The notes below the pieces were generated by a model. It was not told the origin of the DNA. It worked only from the letters and a program-made list of their open reading frames with translations, and searched no databases. A program made the translations under genes and the position numbers. Of a stretch of 12,511 nucleotides of DNA, positions 4,160 to 7,400 are shown piece after piece (the first letter of the stretch is position 1; the number at the start of each line of letters is the position of its first letter). Source of the stretch: a virus; the IMG/VR virus record IMGVR_UViG_3300031669_003253. One strand, 5' to 3'.

Positions 4160-4220
4160 AGTATACCAGATACGGCACCCGAGTCAACGACGAAGTTGAA
4201 AAACTTGTGAAGTTTTTCAA
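4160..4220 (-). promoter_or_regulatory. promoter module A: TTGACT-16-TGGTATACT with two dyad elements
   Basis: On the minus strand the sequence reads TTGAAAAACTTcacAAGTTTTTCAA (perfect 11-bp inverted repeat, 4196..4220), then cttcgtcg, then TTGACT (4187..4182), then a 16-nt spacer ending in TG, then TATACT (4165..4160). The -10 lies inside the dyad GCCGTATctggtATACTGC. The predicted TSS is ~4153, immediately 5' of the SD AAGGAGG. It is one of 4 near-identical copies (A-D). Confidence 0.6.
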
Positions 4221-4221
4221 C

Positions 4222-4264
4222 CGCCAAAACGGCCGCACCACCGGCCTGTCTGGTGGTGCGGCCG
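4222..4264 (-). terminator. intrinsic terminator-like hairpin after the 352-aa gene
   Basis: The minus-strand RNA forms CGGCCGCACCACC-agacaggcc-GGTGGTGCGGCCG-UUUUGG. This is a 13-bp GC-rich perfect stem with a 9-nt loop and a U4 tract. It starts 9 nt after the stop at 4273 and sits immediately before promoter A. Confidence 0.5.
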
Positions 4265-4272
4265 TTGCTGTA

Positions 4273-5331
4273 CTACTTGCCCGCCAGCGCGACCGCTGCG
4301 TCGAAGGCCCGTGCCTTCTCCTTCGCCCGCGATCCGAACAGCAACGACTCGTCGGCGTTGCTGCCCTCGCGCCAGTCCGAGTTCTCGGTGACCGCGTTGT
4401 ACGCCGCCCACGCCGTCCCGCGCATATCCTCGCGGTCGAACTTCGCGTAGCACTCGCGTGCCAGCTCGCGCAGGGATTCGGCCCGACCCATCAGCTGCTG
4501 GTGTCGGAGTTCGGCGAGCTTGATCGTTGCCATCTGATCCGCATCGAGGTCCTTCGTGTACACCGTGCGCTCCTCCTCGGTGGGGAACTGCTCGTAGAGT
4601 ATGCGCAGCTTGCGCGGCATCGCCGGGTCGGGATACGCCGCCAGGAAGATCTCCTCGGCCTCATCGACGGTCAGTGTCTTCCGCGCCAGCGCCTCGCACA
4701 GCTCCTGCGTCTTGTTCTTCGCCTCGTGGAACTTCTTGACGATGTCGGCAGCGAGCTTCATCTGCTCCAGGGAGTCTGCTTCGTGCGGGATCTTGATGTT
4801 GATGTTGGCCGAGCTGATCGCCATGCTCAGCGTGTTGTTGCAGACCGTGCGGACCGGCGTGTGCAGGACGTGGTGACTGATCCCTGGCTTCATCGAGATG
4901 GCCACGGTGATGTAGCTGATGACCTGGTCGCCGAGCACGTTCCACTCCTCGGCCTTGAAGCTGACGAAGCAGATCGCGCCGTGCTTGATTAGACCTGCGG
5001 TCTCGACGGGGTACGTTTCCGACAGCTTGTCAAAGACCTTCGCGCAGGCGACGTACGATTCGAGCTTCCAGCTGTCAGACGCGATGCCGAACTGCCGAGG
5101 GACGTAGTCGTCCTTCATCGGCTTGCGGACGATCGCGACCTGGTTCGACTTGTACTCCTTGCCGTCGAGCCAGTAGGTCATCGGGAGCTTCACGACCTCG
5201 GCGTCCTTCGTGACTTCCTCGACCCACTCCGACGCCGTGGCCTGCTCGCCCTTCTTGGCAGTGCGACCGATCCGGTGCCAGCCTGGCGTCTCCCGCGCTA
5301 CGAACCTGTCTCCAACTAGCTCATGTGCCAT
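4273..5331 (-). CDS. hypothetical protein (352 aa)
   Basis: Track ORF. ATG 5331 has AAAGGGGA 7 nt upstream. High GC3 and a non-repetitive globular-looking sequence. No family assigned with confidence. Confidence 0.8.
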   Translation of the reverse strand: MAHELVGDRFVARETPGWHRIGRTAKKGEQATASEWVEEVTKDAEVVKLPMTYWLDGKEYKSNQVAIVRKPMKDDYVPRQFGIASDSWKLESYVACAKVFDKLSETYPVETAGLIKHGAICFVSFKAEEWNVLGDQVISYITVAISMKPGISHHVLHTPVRTVCNNTLSMAISSANINIKIPHEADSLEQMKLAADIVKKFHEAKNKTQELCEALARKTLTVDEAEEIFLAAYPDPAMPRKLRILYEQFPTEEERTVYTKDLDADQMATIKLAELRHQQLMGRAESLRELARECYAKFDREDMRGTAWAAYNAVTENSDWREGSNADESLLFGSRAKEKARAFDAAVALAGK

Positions 5332-5377
5332 GTTTCCCGTCCCCTTTCGGTGGGGCTTCCGGCCCCACGCTGGTAGA

Positions 5378-5426
5378 AGTATATCAGATACTGCCTCTGA
5401 GTCAAGAAAAACTTGTGAAGTTTTTC
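5378..5426 (-). promoter_or_regulatory. promoter module B: TTGACT-16-TGATATACT with an upstream dyad
   Basis: On the minus strand the sequence reads GAAAAACTTcacAAGTTTTTC (5426..5406), abutting TTGACT (5405..5400), then a 16-nt spacer, then TATACT (5383..5378). The -10 dyad reads GCAGTATctgatATACTTC. The stop codon of the upstream gene (5425..5427) lies inside the dyad, so there is no room for a terminator. Confidence 0.6.
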
Positions 5427-5967
5427 AGACCACGTACTTCACGAACCGACAGACGTCCTCGGCGCGGACCTCGTCGCAGTAGGTGAAGAGCACCGTGAGC
5501 GCCTTCGCCTGCGGCGTGTCGCTGTTCTTCATCTCGCGGCGGAAGCCCGTGTTCGTCACCATCAGGGACTCACCGAACCTGGGCATGCCGCTCACCTGCA
5601 GCATGAGCTTGTCGCCGTAGTCGAGCACGTCGCCCTCTACGTTCTTGGTATGGACGTCGTCGCCCTGGGTCAGCGCGAACTTGTGGCGGGCCACCAGCTC
5701 GTTGGCCTGCTTGACCTCGGGCGGCACGTAGCTGGCACCGAGCCCCGCCTTGTCGGCGACGTTCGATCCCTCCTTGTAGCCGCGCTCGTAGTCCTCGACG
5801 TACTTCCGGGTCGGGCTGACCGTCGAGAACCCCGCGAAGCCGTGCCGCAGTCCGGTGCGGTAGTGCGCCGCGCCCTGCTTCGTCGCGCTGCCCAACTGCG
5901 GCAGCCACTGCACCCTCTTGCCGTGCGCCTGCAACTTGATCACCGTGAGTCCGTACCTCTTTGCCAT
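5425..5967 (-). CDS. hypothetical protein (180 aa)
   Basis: Track ORF starts at GTG 6000, which overlaps the upstream gene by 19 nt. I prefer ATG 5967, with AAAGGGGA 7 nt upstream and 14 nt after the upstream stop. High GC3. Product begins MAKRYGLTVIKLQAHGKRVQWLPQLG.... Confidence 0.65.
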   Translation of the reverse strand: MAKRYGLTVIKLQAHGKRVQWLPQLGSATKQGAAHYRTGLRHGFAGFSTVSPTRKYVEDYERGYKEGSNVADKAGLGASYVPPEVKQANELVARHKFALTQGDDVHTKNVEGDVLDYGDKLMLQVSGMPRFGESLMVTNTGFRREMKNSDTPQAKALTVLFTYCDEVRAEDVCRFVKYVV

Positions 5968-5981
5968 GTCCGTCCCCTTTC

Positions 5982-6995
5982 CTAGTTCGGTCCGCCGCAC
6001 GAGCGGAAGGCGCCCGCCGGAAGTTCCCAGTCCTTGACCGTCACCATGAACGCCGGGTACTGCGTCGACATCGCGAGCGTCGCCTGCCGCGTCTCGCTCT
6101 CGATCTGCTCGTACACCGCGCCCTTATCGGCCTCTTCGACGATCGACGTCTTGCGCTTGATCGTGCAGTCGAACTCAGTCTCGTACGACGCGATCTTCTC
6201 GAAGCGCGTCGGGTCGAGGGCGCGGATCGTCGCCCACTGGTTCTTGTCGCCGAAGATGCAGGCCATGCAGCTGACGCGGCCAAAGCCCAGGTGGTATGCC
6301 GGGTGCGGGTTGATCGACCAGCGCTTGATGATGTCCCACACCTGCTGCTCGCTCCAGTCGATGACCGAGCGCCACTGGTGGACGGTGCGGCTCTTCGTGT
6401 TCGACTTGTGTGACTCGACCTCGGCGTAGCGAGCCCGGTTCGCCGACTCTTCACGCCGCTCACCGGTGAGGACGCAGAGCTTCTTGCCCTTGAGCGCCGG
6501 GTCGTTGTTGATCGCTCGCGTGCAGACGTCGATCTTGAGGTAGGACGAGCACCAGCGGACCGACAGGTCGGCCGACACCTGGGGGAACTTGCGGCGGGTG
6601 GCCTTCTTGCCACGGGCGCTCGGCGCGGCGTACTTGATCTCGCCGTCCTGTGTCTCGAAGTACGCACCCTTGGTCATCGCGTCCTCGCGGAGCATCTCGC
6701 CCTCGAAGCCCTGGTCCTTCCACTGGTACAGCAGGCGGATGCCGAGGTGCCTCGCGACGGTCTCGCAGTACGCCTCGGTCACGTTCCAGTCCATCAGGCG
6801 CTCGTCGGTCTCACCGTCGATCCGCTGGTGCCAGAGCTGGATCTTCGCCTTGTCGACACCGCGCTCCAGGAGGTCGAGCACCATCGCGAGCGAGTCCTTG
6901 CCGCCCGAGAAGCTGACGATGAACAGGTCGTACTCGTTGAGGTCGAGCAGGTCGGCCGTGTTCGGTCGCGTCTCGTTCTTCACTCGCTTCGTCAT
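5982..6995 (-). CDS. PP-loop ATP pyrophosphatase of the PAPS-reductase family (CysH/DndC/QueC-like)
   Basis: DLFIVSFSGGKDSLAMVLDL is the SGGxDS PP-loop fingerprint. The domain length fits the PAPS-reductase fold, and there is a C-terminal CMAC pair. ATG 6995 has GGGAGGA 6 nt upstream. This family is common in actinophages. Confidence 0.8.
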   Translation of the reverse strand: MTKRVKNETRPNTADLLDLNEYDLFIVSFSGGKDSLAMVLDLLERGVDKAKIQLWHQRIDGETDERLMDWNVTEAYCETVARHLGIRLLYQWKDQGFEGEMLREDAMTKGAYFETQDGEIKYAAPSARGKKATRRKFPQVSADLSVRWCSSYLKIDVCTRAINNDPALKGKKLCVLTGERREESANRARYAEVESHKSNTKSRTVHQWRSVIDWSEQQVWDIIKRWSINPHPAYHLGFGRVSCMACIFGDKNQWATIRALDPTRFEKIASYETEFDCTIKRKTSIVEEADKGAVYEQIESETRQATLAMSTQYPAFMVTVKDWELPAGAFRSCGGPN

Positions 6996-7019
6996 GCTTG
7001 TCCTCCCTTGTCTGGTAGC

Positions 7020-7072
7020 AGTATACCAGATACTGCACCCCAGTCAAGAGTCAATCTGAAAAACTTGTGAAG
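7020..7072 (-). promoter_or_regulatory. promoter module C: tandem TTGACT, 16-nt spacer, TGGTATACT
   Basis: On the minus strand the sequence reads TTGATTTTCTTCACAAGTTTTTCAGA-TTGACTC-TTGACT (7047..7042)-ggggtgcagtatctgg-TATACT (7025..7020). The -10 lies in the perfect dyad GCAGTATctggtATACTGC. The CTTCACAAG core is conserved, but the left arm of the upstream dyad is altered. The TSS is ~7013, just 5' of the SD GGGAGGA. Confidence 0.6.
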
Positions 7073-7076
7073 AAAA

Positions 7077-7325
7077 TCAACCGATCGGGTGCGCCCGCTC
7101 GGCGGCCTCGTTCGCGGCGTCCTGCTGTTCCATCGACTCGACCTTCATCGCCTCGTGCATCGCCTCGTCCCAGCTGTCCTCGTCGAAGACGTCGATGAAG
7201 AACTCGCGCAGGGCCGACCGCTTGATCTGTGACTTCTCGTCACGGGCCGCGTCGTAGCGGAGGCAGTCACAAGCCGCCAGGTAAACCAGAGCCTTCTCTT
7301 CCGCCGTCAGTTCGTTCGTGGCCAT
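7077..7325 (-). CDS. hypothetical small acidic protein (82 aa)
   Basis: Track ORF. ATG 7325 has AAGAGAGG 7 nt upstream. High GC3. It is driven by promoter D. Its stop lies inside promoter module C. Confidence 0.65.
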   Translation of the reverse strand: MATNELTAEEKALVYLAACDCLRYDAARDEKSQIKRSALREFFIDVFDEDSWDEAMHEAMKVESMEQQDAANEAAERAHPIG

Positions 7326-7348
7326 GGGAACCTCTCTTTCGTGTTAGC

Positions 7349-7400
7349 AGTATACCAGATACTGCGTCGCGATCAAGAGGAATCCTGATTTTGTTATGAG
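7349..7400 (-). promoter_or_regulatory. promoter module D: TTGATC-16-TGGTATACT with a degenerate upstream element
   Basis: On the minus strand the sequence reads GAAAAACCTCATAACAAAATC...TTGATC (7376..7371)-gcgacgcagtatctgg-TATACT (7354..7349). The -10 dyad GCAGTATctggtATACTGC is perfect. The upstream element is a diverged copy of the A/B dyad. Confidence 0.55.

Follow-up and report, generated by a model that had tools for sequence, protein, structure and literature searches.

Predicted Promoter Modules With Superimposed Palindromes Head Auxiliary Genes in a Variable Region of an Uncultured Phage

IMG/VR virus record IMGVR_UViG_3300031669_003253 is a stretch of 12,511 nucleotides of viral DNA (the window, at its full length, in what follows) in which four near-identical modules, A to D, each head a gene on the minus strand. 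Every module combines a predicted sigma-70-type promoter with a palindrome laid over its -10 hexamer and an A/T-rich dyad upstream of its -35 hexamer. An earlier sequence-only reading had pointed out these four sites; the observation is real and needed small corrections only. The explanation we favor, at a probability of about 0.6, is that the modules are host sigma-70-type promoter cassettes in a hyperplastic region, that they carry superimposed palindromes and serve as recombination handles, and that their closest known counterparts are the promoter-early stem-loops (PeSLs) of T4-type phages (Arbiol et al., 2010, PMC2839356; Comeau et al., 2014, PMC4122927). The finding that adds most is the role of the modules as recombination handles of a small hyperplastic region, module C being a recombinant itself.

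Results

Four Copies of a Predicted Extended -10 Promoter

The window was scanned for the 19-mer core GCAGTATCTGGTATACTGC with up to 3 mismatches allowed. It was matched four times, always on the minus strand and with two mismatches at most, against 0.00 matches expected from shuffled sequences, which bears out the claim of four repeated modules (coordinates in Table 1). The sequence TGNTATACT was likewise matched four times, solely at the four modules (0.06 expected). A promoter-consensus scan returned, for modules A, B and C, TTGACT-16-TATACT preceded by a TG upstream of the -10 and, for module D, TTGATC-16-TATACT, so that the proposed signature of TTGACT, a 16-nt spacer and TGnTATACT stands for three modules and breaks down at D in the -35 hexamer. 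TGn lies right before the -10 hexamer in all four (TGGTATACT three times, TGATATACT once). Scored against TTGACA/TATAAT, A, B and C hold 10 of 12 consensus positions and D holds 9 of 12. The window contains seven promoter-like matches altogether, all on the coding strand (2.1 expected from shuffles) and six of them intergenic.

All four modules are intergenic and lie 21–46 nt before an ATG, with a GGAGG-type Shine-Dalgarno sequence (SD) in between, as expected of the proposed sigma-70 extended -10 set heading the 501-aa, 352-aa, PAPS-reductase and small acidic genes. Short leaders had been proposed for the whole set. Eight of the 9 non-redundant modules of the window and its relatives, A, C and D among them, have 21–24 nt from the -10 hexamer to the ATG, whereas module B has 46 nt with a hairpin inside. 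That GC-rich hairpin was found at module B only; its folding energy does not differ significantly from that of shuffles (z -0.2), and it may be a stabilizer or a translational element. The A/T dyad of module B contains the stop codon of the upstream gene. These features support the prediction that the modules form a family of sigma-70-type extended -10 promoters.

Table 1. Positions of the modules, promoters, hairpins and related features (window coordinates unless a contig is named; SD, Shine-Dalgarno sequence).
Feature	Position	Strand	Remarks
Module A	4139-4223	-	heads 501-aa gene (2633-4138)
A, 25-bp dyad	4196-4220	-	perfect; 21-bp core 4198-4218
A, 10-nt linker	4188-4197	-	
A, -35 TTGACT	4182-4187	-	
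A, palindrome GCCGTATCTGGTATACTGC	4158-4176	-	1 mismatch
A, -10 hexamer	4160-4165	-	ATG 21 nt downstream
Module B	5332-5428	-	heads DUF932 gene (4273-5331)
B, exact 21-bp dyad	5406-5426	-	abuts -35
B, -35 TTGACT	5400-5405	-	
B, palindrome GCAGTATCTGATATACTTC	5376-5394	-	2 mismatches, one in the 5-nt center
B, -10 hexamer	5378-5383	-	46 nt to ATG
B, leader hairpin GTGGGGCCGGAAGCCCCAC	5350-5368	-	GC-rich, in DUF932 5' leader
Module C	6996-7083	-	heads PAPS-reductase gene (5982-6995)
C, A/T element GATTTTCTTCACAAGTTTTTC	7058-7078	-	left half GATTTTC
C, 10-nt linker		-	carries a second TTGACT
C, -35 TTGACT	7042-7047	-	
C, palindrome	7018-7036	-	exact; -10 hexamer 7020-7025
Module D	7326-7412	-	heads 82-aa acidic gene (7077-7325)
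D, A/T element GAAAAACCTCATAACAAAATC	7387-7407	-	right half CAAAATC; 10-nt linker follows
D, -35 TTGATC	7371-7376	-	
D, palindrome	7347-7365	-	exact
D, -10 TATACT	7349-7354	-	TG in front; 23 nt with SD to ATG
Center of 21-bp upstream dyad, CTTCACAAG			
Promoter E, TTGACG-16-TACACT	11774-11801	-	element 11774-11813
E, extra motif TTGATTTTC	11805-11813	-	3 nt upstream of E
Promoter F, TTGACA-17-TATGGT	1259-1287	-	heads HNH gene; element 1259-1309
F, upstream dyad GATTCTCTTCATAAGAAGATC	1289-1309	-	related to 21-bp element; contains CTTCATAAG (1295-1303)
Terminator-like hairpin	4228-4266	-	between DUF932 gene and module A
Very long hairpin	7429-7515	-	26-nt arms, near-perfect; 35-nt loop; then UCUCUUUAA
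Ribbon-helix-helix candidate	10955-11254	-	99-aa ORF; Arg/Pro-rich, AT-hook-like N-terminal arm RGGRRPGAGRRPKPP
Optional cassette	L130 6584-8255	+	455-aa gene and 100-aa ORF; also in L135, L229 and the P0048 contig

The Palindrome Over the -10 Hexamer Is Conserved More Than a Promoter Requires

The palindrome has the layout GCAGTAT-N5-ATACTGC, its right arm coinciding with the -10 hexamer and its left arm filling the spacer. It had been described as perfect in C and D and as carrying one mismatch in A and in B; this is accurate for the arms, the second mismatch of B falling in the 5-nt center. The 7-nt arms are also perfect in modules C2, X and L199-1 of related genomes (see below). Across the nine non-redundant modules, mean pairwise identity was 97.5% for TGnTATACT, 93% for the spacer half of the palindrome (GCAGTATC), 81% for the GC after the -10 hexamer and 78% for the -35 hexamer, in which TTG is invariant and which stands at the 16-nt spacing in every copy. 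The stretches flanking the core scored lower, the 5 nt that separate it from the -35 hexamer at 41% and the 6 nt on its far side at 43%. The spacer block is better conserved than the -35 hexamer, for which the usual contacts of RNA polymerase do not account; this is the chief argument that the block has a second function, and we infer that this is most simply that of an operator.

A 19-nt block that is near-invariant just upstream of the presumed start might instead be the promoter of a phage-encoded sigma factor or RNA polymerase, of the T7-like kind of about 20 bp, with TTGACT incidental. The core is indeed more conserved than the -35, and D and C2 have poor -35 hexamers. Yet a -35 hexamer with invariant TTG stands at exactly 16 nt in all copies, TGnTATACT is a textbook extended -10, and the roughly 26 kb of this phage that were read (about half of the genome) hold no RNA polymerase or sigma gene, so that we regard such a promoter as extremely improbable. 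A LexA/SOS-box reading of the palindrome was rejected, its half-site and spacing being unlike those of the familiar boxes.

Modules Are Retained in a Diverged Relative

With the 501-aa protein as query (59% protein identity) a diverged relative, L199, was found, and its sister contig L229 was found with the PAPS-reductase query. Their DNA is about 84% identical to the window in the PAPS-reductase gene and about 69% elsewhere. They carry three modules, in each of which GTATCTGGTATACT is unchanged. The module before the PAPS-reductase gene has an exact core; that before the homolog of the 180-aa protein reads GCTGTATCTGGTATACTGC, with the dyad GAAAAAGTTCGGAAGTTTTTC abutting the -35; and that before a 503-aa gene, the ortholog of module A (L199-3), reads GCCGTATCTGGTATACTTC. 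L199-3 retains the private variant GCC of module A as well as its leader aggtgtgaagg, and the modules therefore evolve in place and are not merely overwritten by one another. The module before the 180-aa homolog in L199 has no counterpart in the window, and the B-DUF932 cassette is missing from L199. Comparison within the genome, and with this relative at 69–84% coding identity, supports the view that the dyads are conserved more than promoter hexamers require. The sites had been read as a co-regulated early/middle promoter set with two operator types; a co-regulated set is a reasonable reading, the two kinds of conserved dyad are upheld, and the operator role and the early or middle timing are putative.

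Distant homologs of the 501-aa protein (about 30–35% identity) proved to lie in unrelated phages in which the motif is absent, and PAPS-reductase homologs of 67–75% identity (L226, L227, L228 and L230) belong to other phages with different upstream sequences; both groups were set aside.

The distribution of the copies is narrow. Four or five are packed into 3.3–5 kb, and neither the 7.2 kb that lie upstream of the region (L001) nor the 8 kb that lie downstream of it (L127) contain another. An IMG/VR scan for the -35 plus core returned, of this lineage, L001 only, and a looser 16-mer scan of IMG/VR gave unrelated single matches among the matches listed. When JGI metagenomes were scanned for the core, the matches were single ones due to chance, the same phage, and contig Ga0114919_10000071 (56.5 kb; L164/L165), which has just two core matches, both at the module locus. 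In 185,579 reference genomes the core gave 29 single matches in unrelated phyla, against a chance estimate of about 35, and no clue to a prophage or host.

Modules Coincide With Breakpoints of Cassette Gain and Loss

Comparison of near-identical genomes indicates that the modules are breakpoints of cassette gain and loss, a point that the sequence-only reading did not contain. Contigs L130 and L135 are among those encoding exactly the same DUF932 protein as the window. In both, the 82-aa gene is separated from the PAPS-reductase gene by two genes that the window lacks, one for a 455-aa protein, a second paralog of the PAPS-reductase family (phrog_424, E 1e-15), and the other a 100-aa ORF. The insert is bounded by two modules: C1, whose upstream half is that of window module C, and C2, whose downstream half is that of window module C and which has a D-like upstream half and TTGTGC as its -35. 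The flanks of the insert are 99.8% and 99.5% identical to the window, their two alignments overlap solely within 7011-7070, and the 19-bp core is the sole stretch that is identical across C1, C2 and window module C. On this alignment, window module C is the chimeric product of a C1 x C2 deletion with its junction inside the core. The order of 455-aa gene, small ORF, module and PAPS-reductase gene is shared with the diverged L229 (455-aa homolog 82% identical) and with the P0048 contig; it is therefore ancestral, and the window is a derived deletion.

A further rearrangement was seen in L164, which matches the window up to the very long hairpin and then differs from the first base of the module. 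There a D-like module, X, stands as predicted promoter before a 455-aa homolog (84% nucleotide identity), which is followed directly by the end of the DUF932 gene, the terminator and module A. On the same contig (Ga0114919_10000071) the 501-aa gene behind module A appears to be internally deleted, with a jump of about 1.3 kb (L164 11413-11651 vs. window 2484-2764), and the 455-aa homolog is split into two ORFs. Either true pseudogenes or mistakes of assembly close to the end of the contig could account for these gene defects.

The 7-5-7 palindrome could alternatively be the core of a site-specific, integron-like recombination system that moves promoter-headed cassettes. The C1 x C2 junction does lie inside the palindrome, and the cassette content between modules varies among close relatives. 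Homologous recombination would, however, equally place the junction in the longest run of identical sequence, which is where it lies; breakpoints elsewhere fall outside the core, and no recombinase was seen near the modules. We therefore hold this system to be highly improbable. Very unlikely, too, is a combined role, in which the -10 palindrome, besides being an operator, would be a dedicated cassette-exchange site within an integron-like array, each auxiliary or anti-defense gene having its own promoter and recombination site. Were this so, cassettes might be excised, captured and re-ordered at high frequency, possibly via mini-circles as proposed for PeSLs, and the regulator that silences them might also organize their exchange.

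The Upstream Dyad Keeps Its A/T Content and Its Center

The second dyad, reported as perfect in A and B and half-altered in C and D, was found as described: A and B carry the exact 21-bp form GAAAAACTTCACAAGTTTTTC, only A has the 25-nt form without a mismatch, and C and D each have one altered half. It consists of an A-tract, CTTCAYAAG and a T-tract. Its gap to the -35 is 10 nt in A, C and D, 0 nt in B and 1 nt at promoter F, upstream of the HNH gene; the spacing in A, C and D thus differs from that in B by one helical turn, and the element is centered at about -55 in the former and about -45 in the latter. The altered half is a flipped tract, A5 to T4 on the left in C and T5 to A4 on the right in D, with A/T content kept. 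D and X differ by the same kind of flip, their genomes being 98.9% identical as far as there. Because the tracts flip in orientation yet stay A/T, the element is probably read largely through the minor groove or DNA shape, and we infer a contact site for a protein or for the C-terminal domain of the RNA polymerase alpha subunit (alpha-CTD). The alpha-CTD, an AT-hook-like arm or a bending protein would each fit, together with base-specific reading of the center.

The center, C(T/C)TC(A/G)(C/T)AAG, is present in A, B, C, C2, D (in degenerate form), X, L229-1, promoter F and the F ortholog of L199, in which this promoter is kept. As F and its ortholog have the center, the element is common to promoters with and without the -10 palindrome. 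The diverged relative of the dyad core claimed at promoter F was located as CTTCATAAG upstream of F, which has no -10 palindrome. The claim that TTGATTTTC of module C recurs at promoter E was equally sound, as this motif was found only at 7072-7080 and at 11805-11813; E also lacks the palindrome, and it heads an operon of a 155-aa gene, a ribbon-helix-helix (RHH)-like ORF, a major vault protein (MVP)-like gene and a 197-aa gene. A search of IMG/VR for the exact A/T dyad found only low-GC contigs (33–44% GC), by chance or unrelated.

UP elements are A/T tracts upstream of the -35, canonically at -38 to -59, that tolerate A-to-T flips and show one-turn phasing. The tracts of the modules resemble them in position, in tolerance of flips and in phasing by one helical turn, and differ in the conserved 9-bp CTTCRYAAG center, in dyad symmetry and in lying at about -45 to -65 in 4 of 5 modules. 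One may then ask whether the modules are plain strong promoters with no operator, their palindromy and conservation being due to recent duplication and gene conversion and the A/T dyad being an UP-element-like tract for the alpha subunit. The copies demonstrably recombine, the tracts hold A/T content and not orientation, as a minor-groove or UP-like reading expects, no regulator was identified, and the -10 hexamer is enough to account for the whole right arm of the palindrome. Conversion should nevertheless homogenize the neighbors of GCAGTATC, and these are 41–43% identical next to its 93%. Orthologs keep lineage-specific variants (GCC in A and L199-3) and so evolve in place, a 7-nt left arm would be expected to match the reverse complement of the -10 region by chance with a probability of about 4^-7, and an UP element does not need the conserved center. 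Weighing these points, we consider plain promoters rather unlikely, and prefer promoters with a superimposed operator-like palindrome.

The Dyads Are Poor Stem-Loops and Separate Hairpins Resemble Terminators

Folded as RNA, the two dyads give weak hairpins (-6.5 and -7.9 kcal/mol), and no U-tail follows either of them. The A/T dyad was considered as an intrinsic terminator and rejected for its weak stem and missing U-tail. Two other hairpins look like terminators. The one before module A has a 15-bp GC-rich stem followed by GUUUU (-31.2 kcal/mol, z -5.4). The very long one (-55.8 kcal/mol, z -6.1) closes the upstream MVP operon and delimits the module region on the left; L164 has it without change and departs from the window directly after it, and no Rfam family matches it. 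It is probably a terminator, though far larger than a terminator needs to be.

It has to be asked whether the palindromes are PeSL-like stem-loops, which would attenuate or terminate transcription from the upstream cassette in read-through RNA or in single-stranded DNA, and not protein sites at all. PeSL stem-loops that lie between or overlap the promoter boxes, or lie in the AT-rich part, do act as terminators (PMC2839356); modules B and C have no other upstream terminator, and the T-tract AAGTTTTTC of L199-3 is the tail of a terminator-like hairpin. This reading is not favored here because the dyad hairpins are weak and lack U-tails (the U-tract lies inside the stem) and because genuine terminator-like hairpins precede A and D. 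Furthermore, variants in the arms are uncompensated, and the A/T dyad is kept in C and D despite lost pairing. We judge a terminator or attenuator role of the dyads to be quite unlikely.

A Candidate Regulator Is Encoded Nearby

The 99-aa RHH-like ORF is preceded by a good SD, and it shares 26–41 nt with the start of the MVP-like gene. It is absent from the gene calls on near-identical contigs; one JGI contig calls a 94%-identical homolog (P0167), and this and a 62%-identical protein are its two database homologs. The conserved core is RGGRRPGAGR(R/K)PKPP-ELMKCISFALPP-TI--IDSEA-AR-V-RS--LR-VI. Its matches to the PHROG "transcriptional repressor" family (E 1.4e-4) and to a CopG-like family (E 2.8e-3) are both weak. 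As a regulator of the dyads it is only suggestive, and it is a reasonable first candidate protein, nothing more. No helix-turn-helix protein, sigma factor, RNA polymerase or integrase was seen in the ~26 kb of phage sequence read.

Gene Order and Phage Context

The window is near-identical (99.7–99.8%) to metagenome and IMG/VR contigs of 36–47 kb that carry, upstream of the window region, genes for a T4-type portal, an HU-like protein and a holin-like protein. This places it in an uncultured tailed phage whose genome measures roughly 55 kb. The neighboring portal gene matches Pfam Portal_T4, and the contigs span 36–57 kb and have no cultured relative. Megablast with the entire window as query matched none of 50,697 phage records, and Rfam (E up to 1) and tRNA scans found nothing. 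GC content had been given as about 65% and was measured at 61.7%. The suggested actinophage, or Mycobacterium/Streptomyces, setting found no support: there is no near cultured phage, and distant matches of its proteins turn up in Thermus, Vibrio, Aeromonas, actinobacterial and huge uncultured phages alike. The matches to cultured-phage proteins are such a mixed bag that no host can be inferred from them.

All genes of the window are on the minus strand. In order of transcription, an NrdD C-terminal-like ORF and a 122-aa ORF come first, and promoter E then heads the 155-aa ORF, the 99-aa RHH-like ORF, the 900-aa MVP-like gene and the 197-aa ORF. After the very long hairpin, module D leads to the 82-aa acidic protein (20 D+E vs. 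9 K+R), module C to the PAPS-reductase-family protein (337 aa) and a 180-aa ORF, module B to the DUF932 protein (352 aa) and a terminator, and module A to the 501-aa protein, a DUF7417 protein and three small ORFs. Promoter F, with the HNH endonuclease gene and further small ORFs, comes last.

Several neighboring genes were of interest in their own right. The 900-aa protein (8293-10995, minus strand) matches Pfam MVP_shoulder (E 1e-17) and has a weak Vault_3 repeat. Its only matches in the phage collection were in the uncultured huge phages LR756500, LR756501 and LR756503 (462–735 kb), at 44–45% identity across 78% of its length, and such a protein is unusual for a phage of about 55 kb. The small ORF at 12127-12465 (minus strand; 112–136 aa) matches Pfam NRDD (E 2.8e-6) just in the last ~30 residues of the anaerobic ribonucleotide reductase NrdD, the glycyl-radical C-terminal region, and resembles a stand-alone NrdD C-terminal fragment. 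Just past window position 1, L127 (15070-15633, plus strand) encodes a 187-aa protein with a Lar-like restriction-alleviation match (phrog_599, E 2e-7), consistent with an anti-defense or takeover character of the module-headed region. Downstream of the window end, a long intergenic region (L127 17813-18107 and L199 6516-6725) holds two to three copies of the palindromic motif CCTTGTTGAATGTCACGAAACAAGG and variants of it, conserved across both lineages, and in L127 additionally two direct copies of GGGGTCATTTTTTCACCGTCATTGC; it could be a replication origin or another regulatory region.

Discussion

The architecture of the four sites, their conservation, the distribution of the copies and the recombination junction were observed directly. 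We propose that the sites are copies of a ~90-bp head of an expression cassette in an uncultured ~55-kb phage. Each copy would be a strong promoter for host RNA polymerase with the primary sigma factor, with SD and start codon at a fixed short distance. A dimeric phage regulator bound to GCAGTAT-N5-ATACTGC would occlude the -10 hexamer and turn the whole set off together, and the 21-bp element may be a second contact site, for a protein or for the alpha-CTD. Being nearly identical, the copies would also be substrates for homologous recombination, by which cassettes could be added, deleted or swapped. What this model says on promoter activity, on operator function, on timing and on the proteins that bind is predicted.

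Repressor operators that overlap early promoters are well known from OL/OR of phage lambda and from the RHH proteins Arc and Mnt of phage P22, and in such an arrangement one protein controls several promoters together. The modules resemble these operators in having dyad sites over a core promoter hexamer, repeated at several promoters, with a small RHH-like ORF nearby. They differ in that the half-site coincides with the -10 hexamer and in that no sign of lysogeny, of an integrase or of an immunity region was seen; their operator role is putative.

Several points weigh against our proposal. The outer palindrome positions 3/17 and 2/18 vary without compensation, and true symmetry is limited to GTAT...ATAC and GC...GC, half of which is the -10 hexamer. 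Conservation was assessed over three lineages, in which shared ancestry and gene conversion among the copies inflate its apparent extent. The promoters and start sites are predictions. No regulator was tied to either dyad, the RHH-like ORF being the sole candidate found. This ORF matches Pfam RHH_1 at E 0.16, below threshold; its AlphaFold model, built from three sequences, has a pLDDT of 69 with the N-terminal strand modeled as a helix; and Foldseek with that model gave nothing significant (best E 1.6), many of the weak matches being RHH proteins. Finally, the junction lies in the core in just one of three rearrangements, the right breakpoint of L164 falling inside the 3' end of the DUF932 gene.

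Among known systems the PeSLs come closest. These combine a sigma-70 promoter with an AT-rich part upstream of it and with an inverted repeat that sits between the boxes or overlaps them; they are concentrated in hyperplastic regions, and an indel leaves a chimeric element behind (PMC2839356; PMC4122927). The modules share with them a repeated composite motif of about 100 bp, made up of a promoter close to the sigma-70 consensus and an inverted repeat, followed by SD and start codon. In both, the AT-rich stretch before the -35 often holds the stop codon of the upstream gene (here in B and C), the copies cluster in a variable region and head genes of unknown or auxiliary function, and, where near-identical phages differ by an indel, a copy stands at either end of it and a single chimeric copy is left. 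The phage studied here, in contrast, has about 55 kb at 62% GC where the PeSL phages are T4-like myoviruses of 170–250 kb, the Portal_T4 match being the sole link to these, and it has two to five copies where they have about 50. In place of the stable terminating stem-loops of the PeSL class, formed by polyG/polyC repeats, the repeats here are short, AT-rich and weak with no U-tail, and separate strong terminators serve instead. The palindrome sequence is moreover kept across diverged relatives, suggesting recognition by a protein. By analogy, we would class the system as one more example of promoter cassettes of the PeSL type, here with operator-like palindromes and carried by an uncultured phage of high GC content.

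The stoperators of cluster A mycobacteriophages are asymmetric, numerous and genome-wide sites that block elongation (PMC9283540). They share with the modules a short conserved motif of repressor type, repeated between the genes of one phage. Stoperators lie in one orientation in many copies across the genome; the motif found here is symmetric, present in 4–5 copies at one locus and always fused to a -10 hexamer.

Promoter-operator repeats and PeSL-type shuffling are both established, and the modules open no new category. The genes concerned encode two PAPS-reductase paralogs, a DUF932 protein and a small acidic protein, with the Lar-like restriction-alleviation gene nearby. The 19-bp and 21-bp elements are operator candidates, and could be portable strong promoters for a high-GC host. 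By comparison with PeSLs, the region would be a compact case outside the T4-like coliphages and vibriophages in which the same promoter heads may both co-regulate auxiliary genes and act as recombination handles.

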